A program made the translations under genes and the position numbers. This document shows, piece after piece, positions 13,707 to 60,768 of a stretch of 64,000 bases of DNA. Source of the stretch: a virus; IMG/VR virus record IMGVR_UViG_3300034071_000380, positions 14,687-78,686 of that record; one strand, 5' to 3'. Under the pieces are notes generated by a model that was not told the origin of the DNA, ran no database searches, and saw only the letters and a program-made list of their open reading frames with translations. Numbering within the stretch: position 1 is the first letter of the stretch; every line of letters starts with the position of its first letter.

Positions 13707-13727
13707 TATATTTTCACCTACCTTTGT

Positions 13728-16684: not shown

Positions 16685-16694
16685 TGCCGTCTCC

Positions 16695-17036: not shown

Positions 17037-17098
17037 AGAGTTTTATTTTACCATTCTTTGCTGTCAAAGTCCAGCTTTTTGTCATAGAAGATGACAAA

Positions 17099-18979: not shown

Positions 18980-18989
18980 CTATTCCTAA

Positions 18990-19187: not shown

Positions 19188-19199
19188 TTTATTCTCCCT

Positions 19200-20156: not shown

Positions 20157-20164
20157 GTTGGCTC

Positions 20165-21145: not shown

Positions 21146-21178
21146 TTTAAAATTATACCACCTTAAATGTTATAATAG

Positions 21179-21922
21179 TCATGGCTTATTAAGCTCCTCA
21201 GTGCTTCCTTTATGAATTGAGCTATTGGCTGCGGCTTCTAGTAAAAGCTTGACTGGCCTATATGAATTTGGCTTAATTGTATAGGTATTAAACTTAATTT
21301 GATTGTCTTCTTGCTTCATTCGAAAATTAAATACATACCAATCAATAGGGGCTGTTATTCCCATAGACTCTATATTTTCTATAGCCTTTTTAGCCCCCGA
21401 CCTATTTACCACATATGTGGCACATGACCATTGCTGATAAGATCGGCAGGTAAGGCTATCATTATTAAAAGAATGTTTCATTTCATTATAAGCAAATAAG
21501 GAGTCATCTGGTACAAACGGAGAAAAGAACTCCCAATCTTCTGGCAACTCCACTAGATATGAATTCAATATATATGCAAAATTTTTACTAAGAACAATAT
21601 CGTCTTCAAACAAAATAAGTATATCTTTGTCTGTTTCTAGAAAGTTTTTATATGCAATATAGTTGCTTGCCCATACACCAATTACTCCAGAGCTAGGTGG
21701 AAATGTTTCTCCTGGTTGGCAATAATCTTCTACAGTATTTACCTTAAATTTAGGTGTATCGGTTAAAAATTGATTTACTTTTTCTACTGTATTCAAGTAT
21801 ATTGTGGGTGAGGTTAATCTTGGTATTCCCGCCATTTCACTTAAAACATTGTCATAAGACTGATTTCTAAATTTATTTCCGCTGTCTGTATGAAATATTT
21901 CAAAGCATGAGTTTGCTAACAT
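21179..21922 (-). CDS. Glycosyltransferase, GT25-like
   Basis: GVIGVWASN, LILFEDD, ATYVVNRSGAKK, PIDW. Confidence 0.75.
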   Translation of the reverse strand: MLANSCFEIFHTDSGNKFRNQSYDNVLSEMAGIPRLTSPTIYLNTVEKVNQFLTDTPKFKVNTVEDYCQPGETFPPSSGVIGVWASNYIAYKNFLETDKDILILFEDDIVLSKNFAYILNSYLVELPEDWEFFSPFVPDDSLFAYNEMKHSFNNDSLTCRSYQQWSCATYVVNRSGAKKAIENIESMGITAPIDWYVFNFRMKQEDNQIKFNTYTIKPNSYRPVKLLLEAAANSSIHKGSTEELNKP

Positions 21923-22446
21923 TTCTTAATCCACATTTGATATCCAGACTCTATGACTGTGTACTGATCCTTACATACCTCTAGGAAGCCGTCAACGCCT
22001 CTCTTAGGTTCTAAGAAGCGGTTGCCGTTATAGTTCCATAGGTAATCATCAAAAGCCATTACACCGCCTGATTCAAGCAACCTAAATGCATTTAATCCAT
22101 CTAATGATGTCTGTAATGCTGTATGATCTCCATCAATGTATATAAAATTAAACTGTGATTTATTTGAAGCAAAGTACTCGTCGCTTGTCATTTTGTATTT
22201 ATAAATACGAGTATCATTAAACCTAGAGTCATAATAACTTTCTACTGAATTAAAGTCTAATGATTCATGAGCAATTTCTTCGCTTCCGCCCCATGTATCT
22301 ACATCATGCAAATATTCTAATTCTCTATTATTTAAAAGCCATTCTGTAGCATCTCCCGTATATGTGCCAATTTGCAAAGCACGAAGTGGCTCATTTGGCA
22401 CATGACGGAAATACTTTTCTACATCTTTAAACCAATTAGGAAACAT
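21916..22446 (-). CDS. SAM-dependent methyltransferase (Methyltransf_24-like)
   Basis: LQIGTYTG, DVDTW, FIYIDGDH, GGVMAFDDY. Confidence 0.85.
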   Translation of the reverse strand: MFPNWFKDVEKYFRHVPNEPLRALQIGTYTGDATEWLLNNRELEYLHDVDTWGGSEEIAHESLDFNSVESYYDSRFNDTRIYKYKMTSDEYFASNKSQFNFIYIDGDHTALQTSLDGLNAFRLLESGGVMAFDDYLWNYNGNRFLEPKRGVDGFLEVCKDQYTVIESGYQMWIKKC

Positions 22447-22447
22447 A

Positions 22448-23008
22448 TTAGTACAACTTCAAATTATTAAGGCATCCAGTAACATATTCTGGAGCCATTT
22501 TATGATCATCTAATAAATGCTGGAATAGAGACTTGCTCTCTTCTTTTTTGCCAAGCCACCATCCTGCCACCGCTTTTTCAAACATCAGGCAGTATGCGCC
22601 ATTATAATCTACATATCCTGGAAGCGGTTGATGAAATGTATGTGTGGCATACAACAATCCCATTTCAGCAAATGTGTAGCAGTCTTGATACATCTTATTA
22701 CGCTCATTAATTCTTGATAGCAGGAAGTATGCCTCTGGTCTATTTGGTAAGTAGGCTATAGCCTGCATAATATTATTATGGACAGTCTTATTTCTATCGC
22801 CCTGATGTGTCCAGCATATAGCCATTCTAAGTAATGATGTGTAGGTAATTAGTGGGTGAGTCTTGTATCCAAACTCTGCTGCTCTTAAATAAAATCCAGC
22901 TGCTGAAGCATATTGTTGCTGTGCATCGTAGGCTTGTGCTAGATCAAAATTAATCTGAACATCAGATGGGTTTGAGGCCAGCGCTATTGTTAATTCTCTA
23001 ATTGCCAT
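22448..23008 (-). CDS. TPR-repeat protein
   Basis: Helical TPR-like repeats (AIAYLPNRPEAYFLLS); likely start MAIRE at 23008. Confidence 0.7.
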   Translation of the reverse strand: MAIRELTIALASNPSDVQINFDLAQAYDAQQQYASAAGFYLRAAEFGYKTHPLITYTSLLRMAICWTHQGDRNKTVHNNIMQAIAYLPNRPEAYFLLSRINERNKMYQDCYTFAEMGLLYATHTFHQPLPGYVDYNGAYCLMFEKAVAGWWLGKKEESKSLFQHLLDDHKMAPEYVTGCLNNLKLY

Positions 23009-48737: not shown

Positions 48738-48760
48738 TTGTCAGTGCCTTAGTATAGTCT
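48738..48760 (+). promoter_or_regulatory. PafBC/RecA-NDp-type promoter
   Basis: TTGTCAGTG-ccttagta-TAGTCT. Confidence 0.75.
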
Positions 48761-48807
48761 TAATACATAAGGTTAAGAAAGGTTCTTAACAGAAAGGAGT
48801 TAGATAA

Positions 48808-48990
48808 ATGACTAACTCAATTTTTGCGAAAGTTGCTAAATCAAGCGACTTTCCTGCAGGTTTAATGAATACCTGCCAATGCGGACAGGTTGTTTTAGCC
48901 CCCGCTACAATTCACGACATTTGCCTACCAAATGGCACTTGCCTACATACCGCTTGCGGTAGAGACATTTGGGGAAACCCAATCGCCTAA
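48808..48990 (+). CDS. Small Cys/His-rich early protein
   Basis: AAGGAG RBS; follows a promoter. Confidence 0.6.
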   Translation: MTNSIFAKVAKSSDFPAGLMNTCQCGQVVLAPATIHDICLPNGTCLHTACGRDIWGNPIA

Positions 48991-49007
48991 CGGCGTGTCT
49001 CCCCAAT

Positions 49008-49030
49008 TTGTCACCGCTATCCGCTACAAT
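49008..49030 (+). promoter_or_regulatory. PafBC/RecA-NDp-type promoter
   Basis: TTGTCACCG-ctatccgc-TACAAT. Confidence 0.72.
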
Positions 49031-49064
49031 TCCTACTATAACTACTAACGAAAGGTCATAACAA

Positions 49065-49208
49065 ATGACACTAGATGAATACAGAGAATACCAGCAAGCC
49101 CAGTACGCTAAACAGCGTGAGGCTAATAAGGCTAAGATAAATGCTATGTTCTCTACTACTAACCGCCCTCTAACTAATGACTACCTACTAGCGAAAGAAG
49201 AAAACTAA
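49065..49208 (+). CDS. Small early protein (47 aa)
   Basis: GAAAGG RBS; MTLDEYREY... Confidence 0.6.
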   Translation: MTLDEYREYQQAQYAKQREANKAKINAMFSTTNRPLTNDYLLAKEEN

Positions 49209-49375
49209 TGACTATCACTTACTCAATTTGGCAAGGCTCTAAACTAATCTCTGTGAACAATGTTGCACATGAGGTCAAGGCTATTGACCACCTAATCAAT
49301 TCACTAAACGATAGCGAACTAGGCAAGGGTAAGAAATTTACCGCTAATGTAATGGACATCAAGGTAGGAGAATAA
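49208..49375 (+). CDS. Small early protein (55 aa)
   Basis: TAATG-coupled; MTITYSIWQG... Confidence 0.6.
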   Translation: MTITYSIWQGSKLISVNNVAHEVKAIDHLINSLNDSELGKGKKFTANVMDIKVGE

Positions 49376-49378
49376 TAA

Positions 49379-49564
49379 ATGACTAAATGGGATACTATAC
49401 AAGCAGATGTTGCAGACCAATACGCACACCTAGATGAGGAGGAGGCACTTATGGAGTGGCTAGGAGAAGAAGAAGATGTTTTTGGTTTTGCTAAGGCTAT
49501 TGAGATTGACCACTTAACAGATGAACAATTAGATGAGGTCTTTAACATGTTTGGAGATAAGTAA
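49379..49564 (+). CDS. Small acidic early protein
   Basis: AGGAG RBS. Confidence 0.65.
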   Translation: MTKWDTIQADVADQYAHLDEEEALMEWLGEEEDVFGFAKAIEIDHLTDEQLDEVFNMFGDK

Positions 49565-49902
49565 TGAGCATAAGCGGATTAGTATTTAGAATAAATGACT
49601 ATGGCATGGAGTTAGATAGTTTCTTAGGGGCTATCTATCTACCATGGCACACTATTGCCACCGCCGTTTTTATTACTGTTGCTTATAAGATCTACAAGGT
49701 AAGGAGAGATAAATGGTAGTAATACTATGCGCCATGGTAGGTTTTGGTGTGGCGTATCTCATAGCTAACTAACGGCGTGTCTCCTTGACAATTCAGGGAG
49801 ACCGCCCCTATCTTTTGTGGGCGTTATCCACAGGGGTGATTAAGAGGGTGTGGATAAACACCCTGGATTTTGTGAGCAACATCACATCAAATAGATTAGG
49901 TT

Positions 49903-49925
49903 TTGTCGGTGCGTTGTGATAGTCT
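49903..49925 (+). promoter_or_regulatory. PafBC/RecA-NDp-type promoter
   Basis: TTGTCGGTG-cgttgtga-TAGTCT. Confidence 0.78.
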
Positions 49926-49956
49926 TGCCTTAATAAATCAACGAAAGGAAAACTTC

Positions 49957-50103
49957 ATGTGCGCTTCATGCTACGCTATTGAAAACGGAATAACTTGTTA
50001 TTCTATTAAACCATCTGACCTATGCGATACTCATTACTTTGAGTGGCAACAAGAAAAAATGTATTGGGAATTAGACCGCTCAACGGAAGGACTTTACATA
50101 TGA
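49957..50103 (+). CDS. Small Cys-rich early protein
   Basis: GAAAGG RBS; MCASC..CDTH. Confidence 0.6.
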   Translation: MCASCYAIENGITCYSIKPSDLCDTHYFEWQQEKMYWELDRSTEGLYI

Positions 50104-50264
50104 GCACTTTTGTATCTGTAAACTCTGTATGTGGTGCAGTAACCACCACAATCGATATGTATGATTTAGAATTAAATCCGCATGGTGTTATCTGTTGCGA
50201 TAATTGTCAAAGCATTGTGTTATGCCGTGAGGCGTGGAATTTTTTATACAAGGGGGTAAAGTAA
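50100..50264 (+). CDS. Small Cys-rich early protein
   Basis: ATGA-coupled; CCDNC. Confidence 0.6.
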   Translation: MSTFVSVNSVCGAVTTTIDMYDLELNPHGVICCDNCQSIVLCREAWNFLYKGVK

Positions 50265-50606
50265 TGAATACAGATCTGTTAAAAGATGTCGCATCTATTG
50301 CAAAAGAAAAGCATGGCGATAATTGGCTTGCTTATCTTTGGGGCGCATCTCAAGTTTTGCTTAACGAAAAAGATTTGCAAATAATTTTAGAAACTTTGCA
50401 AGATAATTAAATAAAGGCGGCGTGTCGACTTGACAAAGTCGGCAGCTGCCCCCAAAGATGAGGGGGCTGTGGATAACTTACGTGTAAATGTGGAAAACCC
50501 CTGAAAAATTGTGGATAACTTGTGTACGACACGCCCGAGATCTTGTGAGATTTATCACACGGCTTGAGCGTCTCAATATTTGGAATTACTGGCTAGTAAT
50601 TAGTTT

Positions 50607-50629
50607 ATGTCAGTGGCTTTTGGTACAAT
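50607..50629 (+). promoter_or_regulatory. PafBC/RecA-NDp-type promoter
   Basis: ATGTCAGTG-gcttttgg-TACAAT. Confidence 0.78.
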
Positions 50630-50659
50630 ACTCTTATCAACAAACGAAAGGCGGACACC

Positions 50660-50866
50660 ATGTCAGCAAATGTCTATACAATCGAAAGCCTACTTGTAGG
50701 AAAAACCTATCGCTCAAAGTCTTTAACTGGAGAAATCATTGACGCAGAAAAGTCTGATGATGTCTGGTATGCAGATTGCGATACTTATAAAGTACAGGTT
50801 CGTCCTCACTATTCAGCACCGCTAAACCTCAAAGATACTTATCGTTATTTGGCAGTAAAGATTTAA
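50660..50866 (+). CDS. Small beta-barrel-like early protein
   Basis: GAAAGG RBS after a promoter. Confidence 0.68.
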   Translation: MSANVYTIESLLVGKTYRSKSLTGEIIDAEKSDDVWYADCDTYKVQVRPHYSAPLNLKDTYRYLAVKI

Positions 50867-50936
50867 CGGGTATCGAAACAGGGGCAGTTTAGGGGAAGTC
50901 CTCGCCCAATGTCGTAAGTAAGAATCCTCACACAAT

Positions 50937-50959
50937 TTGTCAGTGCTAACTGATACAAT
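50937..50959 (+). promoter_or_regulatory. PafBC/RecA-NDp-type promoter
   Basis: TTGTCAGTG-ctaactga-TACAAT. Confidence 0.8.
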
Positions 50960-50996
50960 AACTTAAACAAACAAACAAACGAAAGGAAAACTATAA

Positions 50997-51149
50997 ATGG
51001 GAAACTTCTTAGATGTATTAGATGAGGGAACTATCTCCGTCATTGTGTGTGATGATTGCATGGGTTTTGGTGCAATTTTTTGGGGAGATGAAAACTCCTA
51101 TGATGTCGAGCCATGCGATTGCGTAACTAACGAAATTGGAGATTACTAA
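50997..51149 (+). CDS. Small zinc-finger early protein (50 aa)
   Basis: CDDCMGFG..CDC; GAAAGG RBS. Confidence 0.6.
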   Translation: MGNFLDVLDEGTISVIVCDDCMGFGAIFWGDENSYDVEPCDCVTNEIGDY

Positions 51150-51150
51150 G

Positions 51151-51354
51151 ATGTATAAGATTACTTTATCCTATGACGGAAATTCTGTTCGCTGGAGTGG
51201 CGACTATGATGATGCATTGGAAGCATTTACCGCATTTGCTAAATTTACTGATGTTGGATTTGCTAACGAATACTCAACGATTAATCTATCAATGCCGACA
51301 GGCAAAATGTACACAAAAGTAATTGACCGCATGGGAAAGGTAACAATTAAATGA
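51151..51354 (+). CDS. Hypothetical early protein
   Basis: GGAG RBS; operonic. Confidence 0.62.
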   Translation: MYKITLSYDGNSVRWSGDYDDALEAFTAFAKFTDVGFANEYSTINLSMPTGKMYTKVIDRMGKVTIK

Positions 51355-51536
51355 TGACTCGTAAAGACTATGTAGCAACCGCAGAAATTCTAAAGTATGG
51401 AAGCGACAAAATGCATCCTGCTTTATTCTCAAAAATTGTTGGAGATTTTGCGGAAATGTTCGCAAAAGATAATCCACGATTTGATGTAACACGATTTCAC
51501 GAAGCAAGCAATTACAAAGTAAAGGTGGTTTACTAA
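51351..51536 (+). CDS. Conserved small phage protein (MTRKDY...DNPRFD..RF)
   Basis: Motif recurrent in small phage early proteins. Confidence 0.68.
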   Translation: MMTRKDYVATAEILKYGSDKMHPALFSKIVGDFAEMFAKDNPRFDVTRFHEASNYKVKVVY

Positions 51537-51537
51537 A

Positions 51538-51840
51538 ATGGGAAATACATTTGCAGCGGATCTAGTAAGCATGGATTTATCTTTATCTGATTCTATTAGA
51601 ATTCATTTAACTAGTAATCACTATCCACCCGTCCCGTCTTCCATGGTACAACCTTGCATTGATGCGATTGATGCGATTAATGATGAGCAAGGTGAAACAC
51701 TAATTGAATTACCCGATGGCGTATTTTGGCGAGGTGAAACTCATGCGCCTGCTTATGCAATTGCAGAAGCACACCATTTACACAATTGGTTAAATCATTC
51801 TTGGGATTGCGATTGTTATGATTGCATCGCTGAAGAGTAA
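51538..51840 (+). CDS. Hypothetical early protein
   Basis: HLTSNHYPPVP..C; His/Cys-rich C-terminus. Confidence 0.68.
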   Translation: MGNTFAADLVSMDLSLSDSIRIHLTSNHYPPVPSSMVQPCIDAIDAINDEQGETLIELPDGVFWRGETHAPAYAIAEAHHLHNWLNHSWDCDCYDCIAEE

Positions 51841-52161
51841 AGTCCAACGCATTCAGGAATTGCGTCGCAGTAATGCGGCGCAACCTGTTCGCAATAAAAA
51901 AAAGTACAAACGTAAACAAAAATACAAAAAGGATTTAAATAATGATTGATCTGATTGGTATAATAATTACTGCAATACTTATTCTAGGAATGCTATCCCC
52001 AATATATGTTGTTTATAAAATTTGGAATAGTTGACAAAACTTTAAAGCTGCCCCCGAAGTCGTGGGGGCATAACTTGTCTTACGTCAAGTTATAAAATAT
52101 CCCTGAAATTGTGAGATTAATCACAAAATAAATTAAATAAACATTGGGCGTGTTGCACAAT

Positions 52162-52184
52162 TTGTCAGTGGACCATGCTACAAT
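52162..52184 (+). promoter_or_regulatory. PafBC/RecA-NDp-type promoter
   Basis: TTGTCAGTG-gaccatgc-TACAAT. Confidence 0.8.
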
Positions 52185-52217
52185 TCCACTATCAACCAAA
52201 CGAAAGGTAATAAATAA

Positions 52218-52424
52218 ATGGTAGCAATCGAACACACACTTAAATTCGTCACAGAAGTAGACGAAACAAATCCAACAGGTGCCCGTCTTTTACAATTAGA
52301 TAAGCAATCACAAATTCTAATGCTAGAGTCTGCACTTCGTGAATTTGTAATTCCAGCGGTCCTTCCAGTATTGGAAAACATCAACAAAGGCGGTTCATGG
52401 GCTATCGTAAAGGTGGCAGAATAA
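52218..52424 (+). CDS. Hypothetical early protein
   Basis: GAAAGG RBS after a promoter. Confidence 0.65.
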   Translation: MVAIEHTLKFVTEVDETNPTGARLLQLDKQSQILMLESALREFVIPAVLPVLENINKGGSWAIVKVAE

Positions 52425-52594
52425 ATGGACAATCTTTATTCTATCTTATCCGAAAGACACCCAGATGGAGACTTTAATGAAATGGATTTATGGGAGGCTA
52501 TCGCAGACTCAGAAGGCTTGGAGCTGAACGAAATTATGGACGGCGACCTAACAGAATACTTGTGATACTTATCACACCATAAAGGTCTTGATAA

Positions 52595-52617
52595 ATGTCA
52601 GACCCTAATGCTACAAT
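52595..52617 (+). promoter_or_regulatory. PafBC/RecA-NDp-type promoter
   Basis: ATGTCAGAC-cctaatgc-TACAAT. Confidence 0.72.
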
Positions 52618-52643
52618 AACACCCTAAACAGAAAGGAAGCAAA

Positions 52644-52820
52644 ATGACAGTAAATGGATACACTTACAAGGTTGGCGATTTATTCACCACTCTTAAGTCA
52701 AAGAAAACTGGAGTAATCAAGGAGATTATTCCTAACGCATCTGGCTCGGTGCGTGTCTTGCTAGAAATGCCAACAAAGGAAACTCGTTGGACAACAGTTA
52801 GCAACGAAGCCCTAGTATAA
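52644..52820 (+). CDS. Small SH3/KOW-like early protein (58 aa)
   Basis: YKVGDLF..KTGVIKEI..VRVLL..RW. Confidence 0.62.
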   Translation: MTVNGYTYKVGDLFTTLKSKKTGVIKEIIPNASGSVRVLLEMPTKETRWTTVSNEALV

Positions 52821-52843
52821 GGAAATGCGGAAGGGTCGCAGAA

Positions 52844-52866
52844 ATGTCAGACCCTTCCGCTACAAT
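52844..52866 (+). promoter_or_regulatory. PafBC/RecA-NDp-type promoter inside an 11-bp inverted repeat
   Basis: ATGTCAGAC-ccttccgc-TACAAT. Confidence 0.72.
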
Positions 52867-52902
52867 ACAACTAAACCAACCAACCAACGAAAGAGGAAAC
52901 AA

Positions 52903-53325
52903 ATGGCTAGAGGAAAAGCAATCTCAGTTAAAATCGCAACACCAAAAGTAATCAAGGCACTAGAGGCAAAGTTAGTAGAACTTAATGCCAACTATGCTAA
53001 TCAAGAAACAAACGAAGCAAAGTATAAGAAGGCTATGGAAAAGTGGCAGAAGGAAATTACTGCTTATGCCGTTTCTAACATCAAGAAAGCAGAAAACTTC
53101 CGTACTAACTATCGTTCTTGGAATAACACTCTCAACATTGACTTTGATTTGACAGTTACACAATCAGAACTGCCAGCAGAGCCTGAGCGTGACTTTGAGC
53201 AGATGGGTCGTCACACATACCTAGAGCAAAAGCAAGAAATCGAAAACGCAATTCGTATTCTCAAGATGACAGATGAGGAAGTAGTAAATACTTCCACATA
53301 CAATGCGGTTGCTCGTTATCTATAA
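52903..53325 (+). CDS. Coiled-coil hypothetical early protein
   Basis: GAGGA RBS; start MARGK. Confidence 0.72.
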   Translation: MARGKAISVKIATPKVIKALEAKLVELNANYANQETNEAKYKKAMEKWQKEITAYAVSNIKKAENFRTNYRSWNNTLNIDFDLTVTQSELPAEPERDFEQMGRHTYLEQKQEIENAIRILKMTDEEVVNTSTYNAVARYL

Positions 53326-53340
53326 TTACCAATAGGTAAA

Positions 53341-53370
53341 TGTCCTGAGCATGACAACTAAAACTGCTCA
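53341..53370 (+). ncRNA. Putative H-type pseudoknot element, copy 1
   Basis: TGTC-CTGAGCAT-GACA-actaaaac-TGCTCA. Confidence 0.5.
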
Positions 53371-53405
53371 CACCTTCGGGTGTCCCTACTAACAAAGGAA
53401 ATAAA

Positions 53406-53633
53406 ATGCGTAATCGTTTTAGAATAGAAATCTATGACGCAAACAAAGCAAATGATTTAACAATCTATTCTGAACAGGGTGTAGATAAAGAATACTTAAC
53501 TGAATTAGTATTCTCTAACATTCGCCGCTTTAATGGCAAAGTAAATGCATACGTTGTTGATACGTTAAAGAAAAAGAAAACAACTGCAATGTTTCTTGAT
53601 GAGGAAATTGCAAAGAAGTATCAAACAGTATAA
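53406..53633 (+). CDS. Hypothetical early protein
   Basis: AAGGA RBS. Confidence 0.65.
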   Translation: MRNRFRIEIYDANKANDLTIYSEQGVDKEYLTELVFSNIRRFNGKVNAYVVDTLKKKKTTAMFLDEEIAKKYQTV

Positions 53634-53784
53634 AGCTTGGGGCGGGATCTTGTCCCGCCCCACCTTCCCTGCCCTCATAGTTGCGGGGTTATCCACAGGC
53701 TTACGGAAGTTATCCACAACACCCTGAAAAATTGTGAGATTCATCACAACAAATTTGTCGACAAATGACTAACTAATCTAGACA

Positions 53785-53807
53785 ATGTCAGTGCCACATG
53801 TTATACT
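53785..53807 (+). promoter_or_regulatory. PafBC/RecA-NDp-type promoter
   Basis: ATGTCAGTG-ccacatgt-TATACT. Confidence 0.78.
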
Positions 53808-53839
53808 CAATCTAACAAACCAACCGAAAGGAAATAAAC

Positions 53840-54844
53840 ATGGCTCATAATCTAGAAATGGAAAATGGCGAAGTTGCATTTGCGCTTCGTGGAAAACCTG
53901 CATGGCATAATCTTGCCAATCGCATCTTCACACAAGATGAAGAAGTAACTACACAAACAATGCTTGAAGAAGCAAAGTTGTCTAATTGGAATGTTCGTCT
54001 ATCTCCAATCACTGAGCACATTCCAGAATCTTGGAATGATGTTTCTACTGCATCTCTTGTCATTCGTGATAACCCATTTAATGGCGGTACTGATGTGCTT
54101 GCTACTGTTGGTAAGCGTTACAAGCCTGTGCAGAATGAGGAATTGTTTGCATTCGCTGATGCAATTCACGATGCAAATGCTGATTGCCGTTGGGAATCTG
54201 CTGGTTCTTTGCGTAGCGGTAAAGTTGTATTTGGTACTGTGGACATTCCCCGCACAATGGTGCTTGATCCACAAGGCGCAAATGATGAAACAAAGTTGTA
54301 TCTAATTGTGTGGACATCTCACGACGGGTCTGTTGCTGTTCAGGCTGCTGTTACTCCTGTTCGTGTTGTATGCCAAAACACTCTTAACCTTGCAATGAAG
54401 AATGCAAAGCAATCTTTCAAGATTCGTCATACACAATCTGTTGAAGGTCGCATTCAGGTTGCCCGTGAAACTCTTGGTCTTGCTCTTGGATACTTTGATG
54501 AATTTGAGAAGGAAGCACAAGCAATGTTCAATCAATCAATTACTGATGCTGAATTTTCAAAGTTAATTCAGACAATCTACCCAAAGCCTGAAAAGGATTC
54601 TAAGGGTGCATTGAAGAAGTGGGAAAACAAAGTTGTGTTGCTTGATGATTTGTATCATAACTCACCAACCAATGCTAATGTTAAAGGCACAAAGTGGGGT
54701 GCATTTAATGCGCTTACTGAACGCCTAGATTACTATCGCACATCTCGTGGCAATTCAGAATCACTAATGGCTGGTGCATCTGGATTTGACCCTGTTCTAA
54801 CTGCTGAGAAAAACAAAATCAAGAAATTGGTTTCTGCTTTCTAA
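53840..54844 (+). CDS. DUF932 family (TIGR03299-like) phage/plasmid protein
   Basis: MAH..PAWH.L, YKPVQN, ESAGSL..G, SHDGS, PVRVVCQNTL, RHT, GTKWGAFNALTE. Confidence 0.88.
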   Translation: MAHNLEMENGEVAFALRGKPAWHNLANRIFTQDEEVTTQTMLEEAKLSNWNVRLSPITEHIPESWNDVSTASLVIRDNPFNGGTDVLATVGKRYKPVQNEELFAFADAIHDANADCRWESAGSLRSGKVVFGTVDIPRTMVLDPQGANDETKLYLIVWTSHDGSVAVQAAVTPVRVVCQNTLNLAMKNAKQSFKIRHTQSVEGRIQVARETLGLALGYFDEFEKEAQAMFNQSITDAEFSKLIQTIYPKPEKDSKGALKKWENKVVLLDDLYHNSPTNANVKGTKWGAFNALTERLDYYRTSRGNSESLMAGASGFDPVLTAEKNKIKKLVSAF

Positions 54845-54851
54845 ATAAATA

Positions 54852-54879
54852 AAATCCTGAGCATGATTTAAAACTGCTC
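54852..54879 (+). ncRNA. Putative H-type pseudoknot element, copy 2
   Basis: AAATC-CTGAGCAT-GATTT-aaaac-TGCTC. Confidence 0.5.
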
Positions 54880-54885
54880 CACATT

Positions 54886-54959
54886 GTGCCGTTAGCTCAG
54901 TTGGTTAGAGCCCCGAACTCATAATTCGGTCGTCGTAGGTTCAAGTCCTACACGGCACA
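54886..54959 (+). tRNA. tRNA with CAU anticodon (Ile2-like, or Met)
   Basis: Acceptor GTGCCGT/ACGGCAC, D arm GCTC/GAGC, anticodon arm CCGAA-CTCATAA-TTCGG, T arm GTAGG-TTCAAGT-CCTAC; C4/C5 as in TilS substrates; no encoded CCA. Confidence 0.92.
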
Positions 54960-55050
54960 CTTGACAATTGCAGGTGAATGCCCCCATATTTGAAGGCAGC
55001 AGGATCTTGTTACGACCAATATAAAAAAAGCCCTGAAAATCTGTTGACAT

Positions 55051-55073
55051 TTGTCAGTGGCTACCCCTATAAT
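55051..55073 (+). promoter_or_regulatory. PafBC/RecA-NDp-type promoter (also TTGACA at 55044)
   Basis: TTGTCAGTG-gctacccc-TATAAT. Confidence 0.8.
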
Positions 55074-55101
55074 AATGCCATCAACCAACGAAAGGAACAA
55101 T

Positions 55102-55755
55102 ATGCCAAACTGGGTATATAACGGATTAACTGTAGAAGGTAATCCTGATTCTGTAAAGAAAATGATGGCTCAACTAAATAAGCCATTTACGCAACTACAT
55201 GATTCATGGGATGTAAGCAAGAATACATTCATGAAGAAGAATACTCTATATGCAGAGCCTATCTTTGCATTTCATAATATCTATAATTATATAGATGCAG
55301 GAATTACTGAAGAGGAATATCTTTCTCAGCCTGACCATTCCCTCCCAATTCAAGAAGCAATGAAGTGTCTTACTAATGATTGGTATAACTTTAATATCCG
55401 TGAGTGGGGAACCAAGTGGGATGTAGCCGTATCTGTAGGTGACAAGTATCCTGATACTACAGTTGAAGATACTGCTAATGGTGATAACCATGTCGTTCAT
55501 TATAACTTTAACACCGCTTGGTCTCGCCCAATGGGTGCATTAACTAAACTATCTGCACAATACCCTGACCTACTATTTACTTTATCATATGAGGAAGAGA
55601 CTGGCTGGGGCGGAGAAATGGAAATCCTTCGTGGCGTAGTTATATCAGAATCAGAATATGACAACATCTGCCGTGAATGTGATGAGACTGATTGTGTACT
55701 CTTTGATGGAGAAAGAGGTGTAGAGGTATGCACCAAATGTGGGTATGAGTCATGA
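55102..55755 (+). CDS. YubB/Api92-like ferredoxin-fold protein with C-terminal zinc ribbon
   Basis: MPNW..N, DWYNFNIREWGTKWD, FNTAWS.P, YEEE; CREC..CTKC. Confidence 0.75.
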   Translation: MPNWVYNGLTVEGNPDSVKKMMAQLNKPFTQLHDSWDVSKNTFMKKNTLYAEPIFAFHNIYNYIDAGITEEEYLSQPDHSLPIQEAMKCLTNDWYNFNIREWGTKWDVAVSVGDKYPDTTVEDTANGDNHVVHYNFNTAWSRPMGALTKLSAQYPDLLFTLSYEEETGWGGEMEILRGVVISESEYDNICRECDETDCVLFDGERGVEVCTKCGYES

Positions 55756-56369
55756 CAGATTTAATCTCATCTAAATATACATTTGTCTGCGATCCAAATG
55801 AATGTGATTCTTTAATCGAACTAACATCATCAGATGGCTTTGGGTTCCCATCTGGTGTGACCGAGCTAACATGTCCTTGTGGCCGTAAGACCACATTATT
55901 GTCAGTGGAGCATGCTACACTACCAACAACTAACCAAACGAAAGAGGAAAAAATGGAAACAACAACAGATAACCACTACATGACACGAGAGTTTCTTGAG
56001 TCACAGTTAGTACAAAACAAGGCACGCATTCAGCAACTTGAAGAGCAGATTCAACGTGTCACACAACGTGACTACGCAACTGCAGGAACATTAAACAAGT
56101 TACGTGATGACATGAAGGTATTTACATTAGAAGGTCTTGATGACGATTCTATTACAGAATACCAAGCAGAAGAGATTGCAAGCATCTGTGGCTTTGAACT
56201 AACAAATGAGTTTGAGTTGACTGTAACAGTTCAGTATTCAGTTACAGTTAATGCTCGTGACGAGGAGTCTGCTATCAATGCAATTCATGAGACAGACTTT
56301 GACACAGTATCATATGATGAACCAATTACATATATGTCATCATCTATTGATTCAGTAGAGGTTGACTAA
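55752..56369 (+). CDS. Zn-finger N-part in frame with a downstream coiled-coil protein (internal start 55953)
   Basis: CDPNEC..CPC; internal promoter at 55899 and GAGGA RBS before ATG 55953. Confidence 0.65.
   Translation: MTDLISSKYTFVCDPNECDSLIELTSSDGFGFPSGVTELTCPCGRKTTLLSVEHATLPTTNQTKEEKMETTTDNHYMTREFLESQLVQNKARIQQLEEQIQRVTQRDYATAGTLNKLRDDMKVFTLEGLDDDSITEYQAEEIASICGFELTNEFELTVTVQYSVTVNARDEESAINAIHETDFDTVSYDEPITYMSSSIDSVEVD
55899..55921 (+). promoter_or_regulatory. PafBC/RecA-NDp-type promoter within coding sequence
   Basis: TTGTCAGTG-gagcatgc-TACACT. Confidence 0.75.
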
Positions 56370-56581
56370 TGTACTTTGAACTTACCGCTCCGAACCAGGT
56401 GGCCTTTGCAAGGGCCATCTGGGATGCGGAGATAATCGGTTTAGATCCAGAGGCAATGGAATCGTTGACATTCAACATTGGAACTGGTAGTATTGAGAAA
56501 GTAACACGCCTTCGTGAAAAGCATAACCTAAAACTAATTCATGAAAGCGATTCAGAACCAACGGGATATAGGAGAGATTAA
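56369..56581 (+). CDS. Hypothetical early protein
   Basis: TAATG-coupled. Confidence 0.62.
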   Translation: MYFELTAPNQVAFARAIWDAEIIGLDPEAMESLTFNIGTGSIEKVTRLREKHNLKLIHESDSEPTGYRRD

Positions 56582-56728
56582 AATGGGCGACACATACCAA
56601 GATGGCTTCACAGATGGAGCACGCTGGGCTCGTGAGGAAATAACAGAGAGACTGCGTGAGATTGATGTTTATGACATTGATACTTGGTTGCTAGATAAAT
56701 TAGCAGACATGATTGAAGGCGGAAAACT

Positions 56729-56935
56729 GTGATGGAGGATCTATCTAGATGGATTGCATGTGACCAATGCGGTACCGCCCAAGCTATGTATCTAGTTAAA
56801 CTAGTAGACGGTGAATTGTTCTTTTGCGGTCACCACTATAATGCAAGCAAAAGAGGCCTTGACAAGGTCGCATATGAAGTAGTAGAATTAAATAAGACCG
56901 AAGAAGTACCTACATTAGAAGAGGCGGAACTGTAA
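56729..56935 (+). CDS. Small zinc-binding protein (CDQC..CGHH)
   Basis: Motif recurrent in actinobacterial and actinophage small proteins. Confidence 0.68.
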   Translation: MMEDLSRWIACDQCGTAQAMYLVKLVDGELFFCGHHYNASKRGLDKVAYEVVELNKTEEVPTLEEAEL

Positions 56936-57336
56936 TGGGAGATAGAGCAAACTTTGGATTTAGACAGTCAAACGGTGAAACGATTGTTCTATACGGGCAC
57001 TGGGCAGGATACAACATGCTAGCAAAGTTAGCGGATGCTGTAGATAAGGCCCGTCCACGTTGGACAGATGAATCATATGCAACACGCATCTGCATTTCAC
57101 AATTGGTTGGAGATGATTGGAATTCAGAAACAGGCTGGGGCCTACAGGTAAATTCAATCAGCGACAATGAACATAAGATTCCATTAATTGATTGGGCAAC
57201 ACAAACGTTTAGTCTGCATGAAGAAGCGCCATGGTCCGAGTCAACAGAATACAAGGTCCGTGGAATGTTAGACACACCAATCTTTGATATGTCTTTAGAT
57301 AGTTTTGTAAAGAAATATTCTGCAGCATTAGTTTAA
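56935..57336 (+). CDS. Conserved phage hypothetical protein (MGDRA..LYGHWAG)
   Basis: TAATG-coupled, 133 aa. Confidence 0.72.
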   Translation: MGDRANFGFRQSNGETIVLYGHWAGYNMLAKLADAVDKARPRWTDESYATRICISQLVGDDWNSETGWGLQVNSISDNEHKIPLIDWATQTFSLHEEAPWSESTEYKVRGMLDTPIFDMSLDSFVKKYSAALV

Positions 57337-57431
57337 ATAAGTAAAGGTGCCTCTATAGTCATCCAATGCGTTATGGCCAGGGGTTAAATAAAGCAGGTTT
57401 TTACTTTCGTTGGTACCTAGCAGCCTTATGT

Positions 57432-57472
57432 AAAACCCCAGTTTGGAATAAGCCCCTACAGCTGGGGTTTTT
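57432..57472 (+). terminator. Intrinsic terminator
   Basis: AAAACCCCAG...CTGGGGTTTTT. Confidence 0.6.
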
Positions 57473-57592
57473 GCATGTGCCCTCAAAAGAAGGAGGGTAT
57501 CATAACTCTCTTACGAGATCAATATAATTTTCCCTGAAATTTTGTGAGATGCGCCACAATGTGGCGGGTATCACATAGGAAATCTATTCCAT

Positions 57593-57615
57593 TTGTCAGT
57601 CCCTTAATATATAAT
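57593..57615 (+). promoter_or_regulatory. PafBC/RecA-NDp-type promoter
   Basis: TTGTCAGTC-ccttaata-TATAAT. Confidence 0.75.
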
Positions 57616-57639
57616 AATCACATAACGAAAGGGATAAAA

Positions 57640-57852
57640 ATGGAAGCATTTACAGATACAGTAGGAGAGCATATACTTGGAGCAATCCAAGTAGATATTG
57701 AGCAAGCATTATTTGAAGATTGGAATAATGCTAACTTAGAAGAAGGGGAGGCATTTGCAGAATGGAGATTTATGCAATTTGCTCCTGATAACTTAAAACA
57801 ATCATACAATGAATACTATGGTTATATAGAGGGAGATGAATTTCTTCTATGA
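57640..57852 (+). CDS. Acidic hypothetical early protein
   Basis: GAAAGGG RBS. Confidence 0.65.
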   Translation: MEAFTDTVGEHILGAIQVDIEQALFEDWNNANLEEGEAFAEWRFMQFAPDNLKQSYNEYYGYIEGDEFLL

Positions 57853-57988
57853 TTACCAGCCAAGAACTAATTGATTATATCTATGATGACAACTTAATCC
57901 ATTTTGACGACAGAGATACATCAGATGATTGTGATTGTCACATTCATATAACACTTAATACTATGATTAAATATATGGAGGCAATTGA

Positions 57989-58174
57989 ATGCTAGGTTAT
58001 GAAATGGCAGATATAGATGAGATGATTAACTCAGTTCATGATGCTAAGTTATTCTATCTTAGGACCCCGTCCGATTTGATCGACAAGGAACCATTAGTTA
58101 AAAGCTTGGAAAAGACAGTTAGTTTTCTTCAAGGTTTATGGGCAGAAGGATATTTTGATGGCTACCAAGACTAG
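57989..58174 (+). CDS. Hypothetical early protein
   Basis: GGAGG RBS. Confidence 0.65.
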   Translation: MLGYEMADIDEMINSVHDAKLFYLRTPSDLIDKEPLVKSLEKTVSFLQGLWAEGYFDGYQD

Positions 58175-58346
58175 TAGATTCCTAGAATATATAAAGCTTC
58201 ATCTAATTAGTCTTATCCAGGACTTAGACAACTTACATTCAACTGATGATAACTTTAAATTTGTTGAAGGACAAATTGAGGCAACCAAGCATTTATTGTC
58301 AGTGGCTACTGATATAATGAACTCTTCTAACGAAAGGTATGAATAA
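58155..58346 (+). CDS. Hypothetical early protein
   Basis: Its 3' end encodes the promoter at 58296. Confidence 0.58.
   Translation: MMATKTSRFLEYIKLHLISLIQDLDNLHSTDDNFKFVEGQIEATKHLLSVATDIMNSSNERYE
58296..58318 (+). promoter_or_regulatory. PafBC/RecA-NDp-type promoter within coding sequence
   Basis: TTGTCAGTG-gctactga-TATAAT. Confidence 0.78.
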
Positions 58347-58639
58347 TGAGAGATACAAGTATTACTGAACTCCCGCCCCATTTGCAACGCATGGTCAATT
58401 ACGACATTAATGGATTAGACATAATGCATGGCGAACTAAAGAACCTAATGCTTATTTGGGAAAAAGAATTAGAAAATGCCCAAGAGATTGAGGATGAATC
58501 AGGAGACGCTATGGACTCTATGGAGCGAAAGTATTGCGAAGGCTTCCTTGACTCCTTGGTTGCTCTATATAATCTAACATATCAACTATCATTTCAAATC
58601 GGTATCAGAAAAGAAAACAGAAAGGACGGGCACCTGTAA
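58346..58639 (+). CDS. Hypothetical early protein
   Basis: GAAAGG RBS. Confidence 0.65.
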   Translation: MRDTSITELPPHLQRMVNYDINGLDIMHGELKNLMLIWEKELENAQEIEDESGDAMDSMERKYCEGFLDSLVALYNLTYQLSFQIGIRKENRKDGHL

Positions 58640-58866
58640 TGGCAACATACAGAGTACTAGGAGAAAAGCCAATGATGTATTGGGTGGAATTGCAAGCAAA
58701 GGATTCATATGAGGCATATGACCTTGCTGAGAAACTAACTACAGATAAATGGAATGAACTAGAGCAAGACAATGTAATTGAACCTGTAGATGTATATCTA
58801 AATGATGAAGAAGAAGAGTTTGTATTTGACCAAGTTAATGTGATAGGAGTAAATGATGAAGCCTGA
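58639..58866 (+). CDS. Acidic hypothetical early protein
   Basis: TAATG-coupled. Confidence 0.62.
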   Translation: MATYRVLGEKPMMYWVELQAKDSYEAYDLAEKLTTDKWNELEQDNVIEPVDVYLNDEEEEFVFDQVNVIGVNDEA

Positions 58867-59170
58867 TGACAAAGATAAGTTAAATAAGTGTTTAGAGATT
58901 CTTGATACCACCGACCTTGGTCTATCCATGGTATGGCTATGGACCTGGTCGACAATCAACAACATCCTAGAAGATGACACGTATCAGGCAAAAGCAACAA
59001 AGGACGAGATGTGGGGGCACCTGTGTGAGGCTGTAGAGGCAGGCCAGGGGTTCTCTCTAGAGTGGGGTGCAGAACAGCACAACGAAGAGGTACTTGATTG
59101 GATGTTAAGCAGGGACTACATCGTAGATCCTGAAGACCTAGATGAGGAGGACGAAGATGAAGATGAGTGA
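58853..59170 (+). CDS. Acidic hypothetical early protein
   Basis: AGGAG RBS; Asp/Glu tail. Confidence 0.65.
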   Translation: MMKPDDKDKLNKCLEILDTTDLGLSMVWLWTWSTINNILEDDTYQAKATKDEMWGHLCEAVEAGQGFSLEWGAEQHNEEVLDWMLSRDYIVDPEDLDEEDEDEDE

Positions 59171-59411
59171 TGATTACATCAATGATCAATTAAACAAAGC
59201 CCAAAAGCTTTTATGGGGTGGCAGCGAAACTGAAAACATTGAAGCCCACAATATCATTAGTAAACTAATTAAAGATAGGGTAGAACAAATAAATTTGTAG
59301 GGGCGGTTAAACGCTGTTACGGAGACAATTAAATATCGGCTGGAACTATTTACAAATTCGTAAATAGTTGATATAATTAATACAAATCAATCTCTTGAAA
59401 GGGGATAACAA

Positions 59412-59561
59412 ATGACAACAAAGCGTGAATATCTAAAGCAGCAGGGCATTACAGTAGGAGCTCGTGGACGTTTCTCAGGAGCAGCCAAGGTAGCTCTTCA
59501 AGAAGCAGTAGCTAAGGGCGTAACCTTTACAGCAGAGCCAAAGGTCAACAAGGCTAAGTAA
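59412..59561 (+). CDS. lsr2: Minimal Lsr2-like DNA-binding protein (49 aa, not in ORF track)
   Basis: MTTKREYLKQQGITVGARGRFSGAAKVAL resembles the Lsr2 C-domain (REWA..NG..V..RGRI); TTTACA-N17-TATAAT promoter and GAAAGGGG RBS. Confidence 0.72.
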   Translation: MTTKREYLKQQGITVGARGRFSGAAKVALQEAVAKGVTFTAEPKVNKAK

Positions 59562-59653
59562 CAACCATAGATCGAAGGGGTGGTTGAGCACGTGCTTGCC
59601 ACCCCTTCCCTATTGTGATAAAATGACGGGTAAGAACTTAGAAAGGCGGACAA

Positions 59654-60052
59654 ATGACATCACCTGAACTTAAATTAGCAGAGCAAATAGCAAATGTAGC
59701 AGACAATCATTTCTTTAATCCAGGAATCATTGCACACTATTTATCCGAACAACCACATTACACAATCGACAGAATAACTGAGTTAGTCGTTCACATCATT
59801 AGGCAACAGGCAAAGCGACACAGGTTGGATTGGGCGGACGGAACTACATCAGAGGGTCTATTCCTAGCCAATGAACTAAGCAAAGCCTATGACTTAATTA
59901 TGAGCGGTCACAACTGGAATAATCTAACATTACCCAAAACTAAACCATTAGAAAAAATGGCGGAGGAACCAGTAAGAACAAACAACTCTTGGCTACATAG
60001 AGAATATATAGACAATACTCCAAATCTCAATGATCAACGAGTTATAATGTAA
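59654..60052 (+). CDS. Hypothetical protein
   Basis: Extended -10 TGATAAAAT and GAAAGG RBS. Confidence 0.68.
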   Translation: MTSPELKLAEQIANVADNHFFNPGIIAHYLSEQPHYTIDRITELVVHIIRQQAKRHRLDWADGTTSEGLFLANELSKAYDLIMSGHNWNNLTLPKTKPLEKMAEEPVRTNNSWLHREYIDNTPNLNDQRVIM

Positions 60053-60576
60053 TTAAACATACTGCCCAAATGATCCACAGGATATTTATATCTTGTGGAT
60101 TTTTTGCATGTCTAGAATGTGTGGGTAATGTGGGCAACATTTGCGCTTTACGACAGCATGAAAAAAATCCCTGAAATATTCCACAAAATGTCGACAAATC
60201 TATATAGAAACATAGAGAATGTATATTAAATCTAATAGAATGTATGCAGAATCTGCCCAAATTTTGTCACAAATTGTCGACATATCTATTGACAAATTGG
60301 GGGCAAATATGCATCATTACGGGGCTATTGACAAAATCCCTGAAATATGTAGGCATATGGGGAGATGTGGAGCAAAATGGTATTAAGTGGGGATATTTAA
60401 AAAGGCTGCCCAATTACACATATATCTCTATGTCGATAAATAGATAGTAATCACAAGGGAATTAATAGTAATTATTTTCATCTCTATCTATATCTATGCA
60501 GTCAAATAAGCCTTCTAAGGGGGTTTTAAGACATGTTTATGGGCGGGGGGATATAGGAGTTAAGACCTATTTTGAT

Positions 60577-60768
60577 CTATTTGCAAGCTAAGCAGTAGAA
60601 GGGTGATCTCATATGGTCTGTGTGTGTCACAATAATCTGAGCACATTTGACACATCTTGCTTGCATTAGATCATGCTGCTCTAAATCATAGATTGAGACT
60701 TTTAGAGTCTTTGTGTAATATACCTTGGTTAGGTACCATGTTATTAATATAGCTAATATAGTTATCAT
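60577..60768 (-). CDS. Membrane-anchored zinc-ribbon protein
   Basis: N-terminal TM; CVKC..CLAC. Confidence 0.55.
   Translation of the reverse strand: MITILAILITWYLTKVYYTKTLKVSIYDLEQHDLMQARCVKCAQIIVTHTDHMRSPFYCLACK

Follow-up and report, generated by a model that had tools for sequence, protein, structure and literature searches.

What reads the element that recurs, always in one orientation, at the operon boundaries of the early region of this actinobacterial phage? The window analyzed here comprises 64,000 nt of the IMG/VR record IMGVR_UViG_3300034071_000380 (positions 14,687 to 78,686), and what was observed in it is a three-box element with fixed spacing, one polarity, a set location, and conservation in relatives (Table 1). 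The exact form TTACG-N16-CCCTGAAA occurred seven times, in all cases on the + strand, and was absent from 100 dinucleotide-preserving shuffles. CCCTGAAA (box 2) likewise occurred seven times in the 78,686-bp contig, each time preceded by TTACG at exactly N16. As the preliminary description of this region had stated, two variant copies are present, GGG lies at -16 to -14 (13 nt 5' of TTACG) in seven of the nine copies, and GCCC(C/T)C at -30 and an upstream TTGACA are found in four copies each; the TTGACA lies 48–55 nt 5'. It had also placed all copies in intergenic DNA and in a single orientation; this applied to 9/9 copies and to the variants as well as the exact matches. Copies and genes point the same way in the window as well as in the relatives G002, G007, and G411. 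An A tract precedes CCCTGAAA, T-rich DNA follows it, and the centers of the two boxes are 21.5–22.5 bp apart. Short boxes at fixed spacing with free gaps point to a protein that reads duplex DNA, as had been proposed.

Table 1. Coordinates of the element copies and of neighboring regulatory sites in the window.
Feature	Position	Strand	Details
Variant copy TTAAG-N16-CCCTGGAT	49840..49868	+	TTAAG 49840; DnaA-type boxes 49824 (+) and 49849 (-); no GGG at -16
Copy	50462..50506	+	GGG 50462-50464; TTACG 50478-50482; CCCTGAAA 50499-50506; GCCCCC 50448; TTGACA 50430
Copy GGG-N13-TTACG-N16-CCCTGAAA	52064..52108	+	TTACG 52080; GCCC(C/T)C 52050; TATAAA in gap
Copy 5' of DUF932 gene	53685..53729	+	TTACG 53701; GCCC(C/T)C 53671; perfect TTATCCACA boxes 53689 and 53710, one per gap
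Copy directly 3' of tRNA-Met (54886-54960)	54994..55038	+	TTACG 55010; GCCC(C/T)C 54980
Copy 3' of canonical terminator hairpin (57454-57467 plus T run)	57495..57539	+	TTACG 57511; TATAAT in gap
Variant copy GGG-N13-TTACG-N16-GGCTGGAA	59301..59345	+	TTACG 59317; adjoins sigma-A-type promoter TTTACA-17-TATAAT, 59349-59377
Orphan copy	60132..60176	+	TTACG 60148; non-coding zone where + and - gene blocks converge
Second orphan copy	60301..60345	+	TTACG 60317; TTGACA in gap; followed by ~230 nt of AT-rich, repeat-rich non-coding DNA
Ten RecA-NDp/PafBC-type promoters TGTC[AG]GT[GC]-N8-TAnnnT	48739, 49904, 50608, 50938, 52163, 53786, 55052, 55900, 57594, 58297	+	Range 49904..58318, with 48739 outside it
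CRP/GlxR- or Rex-type palindromes TGTGA-N6-TCACA	49871, 50544, 52110, 53733, 57543		Range 49871..57558

The element was located 3' of terminator hairpins and 5' of the first gene of an operon, and only in the early block. The early promoters of the phage match exactly the host consensus for PafBC-dependent RecA-NDp promoters in actinobacteria, tTGTCRgtg-8 nt-TAnnnT (PMC5656591, PMC6789036). Each of the ten is followed by a leader of the form ..AACGAAAGG-N7-ATG; in six cases a copy starts 42–130 nt upstream of the promoter, and those inside operons have no element. The distance from the element to the next promoter varied from 12 to 128 nt, and three copies in the window had no RecA-NDp promoter downstream, two of them no promoter or gene of any kind. 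Because of this variable distance and the copies without a promoter, the element is an autonomous unit and not a fixed-distance part of the RecA-NDp promoters. The earlier claim that it is not simply part of the early promoters thus holds: the orphans at 60148 and 60317 precede no rightward gene, 60132..60176 also lacking a RecA-NDp promoter, and the ordinary early promoters are separate RecA-NDp/PafBC-type promoters further downstream. A metatranscriptome contig has its first base roughly 7 nt past the RecA-NDp -10 at 55073 and not at the element, although assembled contigs carry no strand or start information.

Host-type regulator sites accompany the element. DnaA-type boxes sit in its gaps, and in 70 of 197 unique copies from relatives a palindrome begins 2–6 nt, mostly 4 nt, 3' of CCTGAA. 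This is where an operator covering a start site would be expected.

We further examined the element in related phages. Among 80 related IMG/VR loci (916 kb), the gap in TTACG/CCCTGAA pairs was N15 in 66 cases, N16 in 104, and N17 in one; no match was found at any other spacing between 10 and 23, and no pair was found on the reverse strand. Loss of the motif or its spacing in relatives, or an equal frequency in shuffled sequence, had been named as grounds for abandoning the element, and the spacing was kept across the 80 loci. Approximately 10 copies per genome were present in the complete relatives G002 and G007, all on a single strand and confined to the early block; in complete relatives the copies are limited to ~10–12 kb of a 104–116 kb genome, at operon starts. 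A relative with a DUF932 protein of 73% identity also retains the element. Box 2 is degenerate among relatives (GCCTGAAW, CCCTGGAA, CCCTCAAA), so the motif as described earlier was correct in outline and too strict in box 2, the conserved core being GGG-N13-TTACG-N16/17-CCTGAA. The copy 5' of the DUF932 gene was orthologous in 55 unique relatives. In these 55 sequences TTA and G were invariant, CC was present in 54 and AA in 53, the gaps varied, and the DnaA-type box even reversed its orientation; TTAAG or TTATG replaced TTACG in 10. At the level of this alignment, the pattern shows purifying selection specific to the boxes.

Lake metagenomes contain this phage family in abundance, with hundreds of IMG/VR fragments. 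Its hosts are actinobacteria, probably streamlined freshwater lineages that are hard to culture; the complete relatives carry WhiB. Assemblies of relatives are circular with end overlaps of only 23–55 bp, and no integrase or resolvase was found in the complete relatives. The search for a sigma or repressor gene that had been proposed recognized none. Searches of four or five complete relatives for sigma-70 region 2/4 (PF04542, PF08281) and the sigma-70-family model TIGR02937 gave no credible match except for a late-region HTH ORF of 52 aa; complete relatives contained no WYL gene, and no DNA-binding domain was detected among 30 early ORFs with Pfam or PHROGs. The motif was not enriched in 401 Actinomycetia genomes (16 matches vs. 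16 for the reversed control).

The element matches no described promoter or operator. We tentatively favor, at somewhat below an even chance, the reading that GGG-N13-TTACG-N15/16-CCCTGAAA is a family-specific, promoter-type signal in duplex DNA, read rightward like the early genes and dependent on a factor. A rightward factor-dependent promoter was absent from the alternatives listed in the preliminary description. TTACG would serve as a -35-like box and CCCTGAAA as a long -10-like box. We infer that RNA polymerase starts at the element, brought there by a factor that homology does not reveal; this reader of the boxes may be a phage ORFan acting as an adaptor of sigma-A or as its substitute; an alternative sigma of the host is a less likely candidate. 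Each early operon would then possess two promoters, the additional one lying upstream of the PafBC-type promoter and being gated by host-type sites, namely the DnaA boxes in the gaps and the CRP/Rex palindrome across the predicted start. From the orphan tandem copies that close the block, non-coding transcription may run into the AT-rich convergence zone. A bipartite promoter has two boxes, a gap of ~15–19 nt, and the orientation of the downstream genes, and the element agrees, with gaps of 15 or 16 nt only. In promoters of group-3/heat-shock sigma factors, too, the -35 is short and the -10 is long, C-rich at its start and A/T-rich at its end (e.g., TAAA-N15-GCCGATAA and CCCCATNT). Box 2 as a sigma-A -10 was rejected, and a TGn-extended reading fails in the distant relative G411. 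Judged from sequence features, the geometry, orientation, operon-start position, autonomy, possible operator, conservation, and early-block restriction all speak for a promoter. Against it, a strongly conserved GGG near -50 is unusual for promoters, the metatranscriptome contig mentioned above starts elsewhere, and no cognate sigma was recognized by homology, with no credible gene in the complete relatives, no DNA-binding domain in the early ORFs, and no motif excess in the Actinomycetia genomes. A more specific version, which we consider unlikely, is that actinobacterial phages have a new class of promoter, defined by the three boxes, in which a small ORFan retargets host RNA polymerase, by PafBC-like sigma adaptation or as an unrecognizable sigma, under gating by host DnaA and a CRP/Rex-type regulator. 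If true, early transcription would integrate the DNA-damage, replication, and metabolic/redox state of the host.

In the main rival reading, the element is an orientation-dependent upstream docking site for a phage or host regulatory or architectural protein, which would activate, insulate, or shut off the neighboring PafBC-/sigma-A-type promoters; the element and the DnaA and CRP/Rex-type sites would work as a single upstream control region, the orphans being extra binding sites; we regard this as possible but rather doubtful. Three conserved boxes including GGG across 45 bp, invariably upstream of real promoters, would suit such a site, as would the absence of a sigma gene from the complete relatives and the phage's existing use of consensus host sites (PafBC, DnaA, CRP/Rex). 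Two copies, 55010 and 59317, adjoin the -35 region of the next promoter, ~13 nt 5' of its PafBC-box position (13–14 nt from the end of box 2 in copy 54994..55038), which is where class I activators bind. A class I-type site with CRP/Fis-like logic would keep to one helix face relative to the promoter, its distances differing by whole turns. Distances from box 2 to the PafBC box clustered at 12–14, 22–25, 51–59, 65–70, and 101–108 nt with a best period of 10.5 bp (Rayleigh p ~0.002, 29 semi-independent points), but significance was gone with one count per distance class (p ~0.13). This weak helical phasing with the downstream promoter suits a docking site better than a promoter, although distances up to 128 nt and copies without a downstream promoter are unusual for an activator site, the searched ORFs include no candidate DNA-binding protein, and the sampled host class showed no enrichment of the motif. 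The phage-repressor operator suggested earlier survives only as this wider kind of site, since the family has no integrase or resolvase and the copies lie upstream of promoters, not on them.

The remaining explanations had all been raised before and fared less well. Leftward ECF-type promoters (TTTCAGGG-N15/16-CGTAA) making short antisense or intergenic RNAs are very improbable: CGTAA looks like the CGT-type -10 recognized by ECF sigma factors, the 15/16 spacing suits them, and the A tract preceding CCCTGAAA on the + strand gives a T-rich run after the putative leftward -35, but an AAC core is missing from this -35, the G at the center of CGT is not constant, being changed in the 10 orthologues with TTAAG or TTATG, and the complete relatives have no ECF sigma. 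Moreover, there are no leftward ORFs, a transcript would enter the upstream terminator hairpin, and the DNA downstream of CGTAA is more GC-rich than that downstream of CCCTGAAA. Polar DNA-transaction sites (replication-fork or transcription barriers, origin-associated sites, staged-entry stop signals) would explain the one polarity of all copies, and two or three tandem copies do lie at the convergence of transcription blocks, near AT-rich DNA, short repeats, and DnaA-type boxes, the sole support for the entry, nicking, packaging, or replication role proposed earlier. Confinement of copies to operon starts in a small part of the genome and the circular assemblies with short end overlaps make this role improbable. 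Some exchange between copies does occur: in contigs of relatives the sequence switches within the element from the left part of copy 53701 to the right part of 52080 or 50478. For many synteny junctions the right side coincides with a module, and terminator, motif, and promoter follow one another between small ORFans much as in the PeSLs (PMC2839356). As a primary role, PeSL-like anchors that shuffle early-gene cassettes nevertheless have only a slight chance of being correct, and the earlier proposal of recombination anchors is weakly supported. Module zones make up 13% of the region and held 45 of 280 junction sides (16%), most breakpoints falling at ordinary gene boundaries, so the expected excess of gene-content breakpoints at the element was not clear; recombination homology needs no invariant boxes with free gaps of fixed length, and the box-specific purifying selection in orthologous copies also argues against it.

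The early region is unusually legible, with its consensus PafBC promoters, DnaA boxes, and CRP/Rex-type palindromes, and the three-box element is the sole conserved signal in it without a known reader. Identifying that reader would uncover either a novel route by which actinobacterial RNA polymerase is redirected or a novel regulator of the phage, and the element provides a defined 45-bp bait for the search.

T4-type phages use tandem early and middle promoters through MotA/AsiA sigma appropriation, in which a factor replaces -35 recognition; the middle promoters retain a normal sigma-70 -10, with the MotA box 12 nt away. Read as a promoter, the element would similarly form a phage-specific second class upstream of host-type promoters, in the same early operons and with fixed box spacing. 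Unlike the T4 promoters, its box 2 is no sigma-A -10, its gap is 15–16 nt, the host is an actinobacterium, and no MotA- or AsiA-like gene is recognizable in the phage. RecA-NDp/PafBC promoters, of which ten exact examples share the intergenic regions of the element, likewise have non-palindromic boxes at fixed spacing and are read with an adaptor-type factor; the element differs in sequence, has three boxes, lies upstream, and does not match tTGTCRgtg-8 nt-TAnnnT. PeSLs of T4-type phages, which lie between small ORFans, are built from a sigma-70 promoter and a terminator alone (PMC2839356). The region studied here resembles them in its stereotyped terminator and promoter module repeated between small ORFans, its plasticity, and some inter-copy exchange, but it contains a conserved three-box signal in addition, at which breakpoints show no clear concentration. 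Stoperators of Cluster A mycobacteriophages are single asymmetric 13-mers at >20 sites across the genomes of temperate phages, oriented with transcription and read by a two-domain monomer (PMC9283540). The element is likewise asymmetric, placed in short intergenic spaces of an actinophage, and tied in orientation to transcription; it differs as a 45-bp three-box unit of the early block only, in a phage family without integrase or resolvase. On present evidence, the element belongs among phage-specific promoters or regulator sites and constitutes no new category.

Searches of the window revealed the nine-copy polar element that the preliminary description had placed in the early region. Seven copies read TTACG-N16-CCCTGAAA and two are variants, and all nine lie between genes. 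No copy arose in 100 dinucleotide-preserving shuffles, and permitting two mismatches yielded only one extra match, unrelated to the motif. Across the 78,686-bp contig, of which the window covers bases 14687-78686, there are seven instances of the octamer CCCTGAAA, each lying exactly 16 nt after TTACG. The finer features described earlier were also recovered, namely GGG at -16 to -14 (7 of 9 copies), GCCC(C/T)C at -30 (four copies) and TTGACA 48-55 nt upstream (four copies).

The fixed spacing proposed for the element held in relatives. In 80 DUF932-centred loci (916 kb), oriented with the DUF932 gene, TTACG and CCCTGAA were separated by 15 nt in 66 cases, 16 nt in 104 and 17 nt in one; the remaining gap lengths between 10 and 23 nt gave zero matches, as did the reverse strand. 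Two complete relatives, G002 and G007, each carry about 10 copies, on a single strand and only in their early block; the second box of G007 is often GCCTGAAW. The DUF932 protein of the distant relative G411 is only 73% identical, yet the element is kept with N16, and its second-box variants include CCCTGGAA, CCCCGAAA and TCCTGAAA. The logo of 197 unique copies read gCCC..(about 10 nt)..TgaGGG-N13-TTACG-N9/10-AAAA-n-CCCTGAAA-n-TT. Its GGG carries as much information as TTACG and the second box, and stands N13 from TTACG with either second gap (15 or 16 nt). An ascertainment-free set, 55 unique orthologous sequences from the intergenic stretch that precedes DUF932, agreed with this picture. In TTACG, the TTA and the final G were invariant, and at the fourth base 45 sequences had C, 8 had A and 2 had T. 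Conservation in the second box was 54/55 for CC, 47 for T, 50 for G and 53 for AA, and the gaps between boxes varied. The second gap of these orthologues contains, at one and the same position, a DnaA-type box, TTATCCACA in some phages and the complement TGTGGAWAA in others.

The element belongs to a larger intergenic module. In several copies this opens with a hairpin that terminates the preceding operon, after which GGCGTGTCG and a hairpin carrying TTGACA in the loop are sometimes present. Next come GCCCSC..GGGG and about 10 nt that frequently form a perfect DnaA-type box. TTACG follows, then a gap of 15-16 nt with an A-rich end, which may contain TATAAA/TATAAT, TTGACA or a further DnaA-type box, and then CCCTGAAA. 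Of the 197 unique copies, 70 have a palindrome of CRP/GlxR or Rex type, TGTGA-N6-TCACA, starting 2-6 nt past CCCTGAAA, and after a variable stretch the module ends with a RecA-NDp promoter, a leader and the gene. The palindromes in the window are compatible with both the CRP/GlxR type and the Rex operator type, which is TTGTGAA-N4-TTCACAA, and are centred about 54-85 nt upstream of predicted RecA-NDp starts. The modules also share a repeated 8-9-mer, GGCGTGTC(G), present as such or as its complement and in many copies in relatives too. It sometimes adjoins the hairpin that carries TTGACA in the loop, and it includes GACAC, the WhiA-type core.

Features of the window and their coordinates
Feature	Strand	Window position	Remarks
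Element, TTACG-N16-CCCTGAAA	+	50478, 52080, 53701, 55010, 57511, 60148, 60317	Position of TTACG
Variant, TTAAG..CCCTGGAT		49840	Position of TTAAG
Variant, TTACG..GGCTGGAA		59317	Abuts sigma-A-type promoter TTTACA-17-TATAAT
TGTC[AG]GT[GC]-N8-TAnnnT	+	48739-58318 (48.7-58.3 kb)	Ten matches; 0 elsewhere in the window
Promoter near which an RNA contig begins		55052-55073	
Perfect DnaA-type boxes, TTATCCACA		49824, 49849, 50468, 50510, 53689, 53710	All within or beside element copies
Palindromes, TTGTGAG-N4-ATCACAA		49871, 50544, 52110, 52561, 53733, 57543	
8-9-mer GGCGTGTC(G)		48992, 49774, 50419, 50528(-)	
Convergence zone		60052-60577	Non-coding, AT-rich; two orphan copies, DnaA-like boxes, short tandem repeats
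TTGTCGACAA-type repeats		60188, 60274	In the convergence zone
Early block	+	46.7 to 60.05 kb	About 40 small genes
DUF932 and DUF1281_C (Api92-like) genes		53840-55755	In the early block
Tape measure gene	-	2-7825	Genome 11355-22511; 3718 aa

RecA-NDp promoters have the consensus tTGTCRgtg-8 nt-TAnnnT (PMC5656591) and are activated by PafBC (PMC6789036). Ten phage promoters fit this consensus exactly, and each is followed by a leader ending in AACGAAAGG-N7-ATG. These are the real early promoters, and through them the phage seems to place its early genes under PafBC, the DNA-damage activator of the host. Such a promoter lies downstream of six window copies of the element, beginning 42-130 nt past the copy start; the other four, inside operons, have no element copy. 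A WYL-domain (PafBC-like) gene was not found in the complete relatives searched, and full-text searches on RecA-NDp or PafBC with phages yielded no description of PafBC-type promoters in phages. RNA runs contained only small shares of the sequence, in the form of assembled contigs of relatives that carry no start or strand information. One such contig begins about 7 nt downstream of the -10 in the promoter at 55052-55073, which hints weakly at use of that promoter and tells nothing firm about the element.

Between the + block and the 3' end of the - strand genes, which converge here, lies a non-coding zone that contains the copies at 60148 and 60317, with AT-rich, repeat-rich DNA after them. 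Relatives have two or three tandem copies in this zone, some just 56 nt apart, and three TACTCCAC repeats are present in that of G007. The zone is a candidate for an origin or a genome end.

The phage is siphovirus-type and its host is an actinobacterium. The - strand encodes the tape measure protein, portal, protease, major capsid protein, many fibre proteins, ribonucleotide reductase and glycosyltransferases. The long tape measure ORF had first raised the suspicion of an N4-like phage, which its identification ruled out; an endolysin-like domain lies close to its C-terminal part (PHROG matches, residues 2396-2554 of the window part). The early block also contains one tRNA-Met. The DUF932 and DUF1281_C families are typical of conjugative-plasmid leading regions, and DUF932 identity exceeds 91% over 80 related fragments, its neighbours being far less conserved. 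Nucleotide searches found no close relative in the phage collection. Against Streptomyces Stanwilliamsviridae phages, identity is about 45% for the capsid protease and likewise only about 45% for structural genes, and the early region of one such phage, EGole, has neither the element nor RecA-NDp promoters. Close relatives are hundreds of IMG/VR fragments, the complete ones being circular assemblies of 104-116 kb, and a WhiB gene was present in all four complete relatives tested. Completeness of the contig was 66% (CheckV), and replication genes were therefore not seen among its annotated ORFs. A host search with ribonucleotide reductase matched only contigs, probably of phages and mis-binned, in MAGs labelled Saccharibacteria, Bacteroidia, Brevundimonas, cyanobacterium and others (79-94% identity).

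Several structural explanations of the element were rejected. Resemblance to lambda boxB (GCCCTGAAAAAGGGC) was dismissed, as there is no AGGG after the second box and no conserved pairing in the gaps. An RNA structure was ruled out: pairing of GCCC with GGGG amounts to only 3-4 GC pairs and shows no convincing covariation, and orthologues differ in the orientation of the DnaA-type box in the gap. Rfam matched the tRNA only. Given the weak pairing, we read GCCC/GGGG as a weak hairpin or as boxes of sequence, and the element as a signal in duplex DNA. A dyad TGAGGG..CCCTGA centred on TTACG was excluded because the arm-to-arm distance varies while GGG-TTACG is fixed at N13. The second box as an extended -10 (TGn + AAWTTT) failed in G411, and its last-position T occurred in only 39-71% of palindrome-free copies.

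We considered what might read the boxes. Four or five complete relatives were searched for sigma and regulator genes. These gave no match to sigma-70 region 2, nothing above noise for region 4 and no integrase or resolvase, and the sole match to TIGR02937 (sigma-70 family) was a 52-aa HTH ORF among late genes. Searches with Pfam or PHROGs revealed no DNA-binding domain in 30 early ORFs. Two conserved basic early proteins matched only viral hypothetical clusters in the ESM Atlas, and no helix-turn-helix pattern was visible by eye in the alignment of a 75-aa one. The exact motif had 16 matches in 401 Actinomycetia genomes versus 16 for the reversed control, so that among the genomes sampled it is no common host motif; the true host may have a small, degenerate regulon.

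Our leading, tentative reading, held at somewhat below even chance, is that the element would be a rightward, factor-dependent promoter. We rank it first because of sigma-type geometry, promoter-like position, autonomy and the frequent palindrome. Two boxes lie 21.5-22.5 bp apart, their spacing tolerates one base more or less, and their polarity is that of the gene strand; the element sits between terminator and gene, as promoters do. It behaves as an autonomous unit, with orphan copies and a variable distance to the next promoter, and the palindrome often falls where an operator over the predicted start site would be expected. Leftward ECF-like promoters, as proposed earlier, are by comparison hardly credible. 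The main rival, a site upstream of the neighbouring promoters at which a regulator of these would dock, is unlikely but a serious contender; the third box GGG, weak phasing and the failure to find a sigma gene speak for it. Distances between the second box and the PafBC box fall into clusters of 12-14, 22-25, 51-59, 65-70 and 101-108 nt. For 29 semi-independent points the best period was 10.5 bp (R = 0.47, p ~0.002), and p was ~0.13 when each distance class was counted once, so that helical phasing is suggestive only.

Gene-content breakpoints showed little excess at these sites: against relatives, the module zones contained 45 of 280 synteny-junction sides (16%) versus 13% of the region covered. 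Some relatives' contigs join different copies within the element; cassette shuffling may be a by-product and is not the evident function. Recombination anchoring as the primary function has a very slim chance, and polar replication or DNA-entry sites are only slightly less improbable.

T4-type middle promoters follow an analogous logic, being located upstream of early promoters. Where tested, the defining features of PafBC-type promoters and of stoperators were not those of the element. In logic, its closest analogues include the sigma adaptation by PafBC, the stoperators of Cluster A phages (PMC9283540) and PeSL cassettes (PMC2839356).
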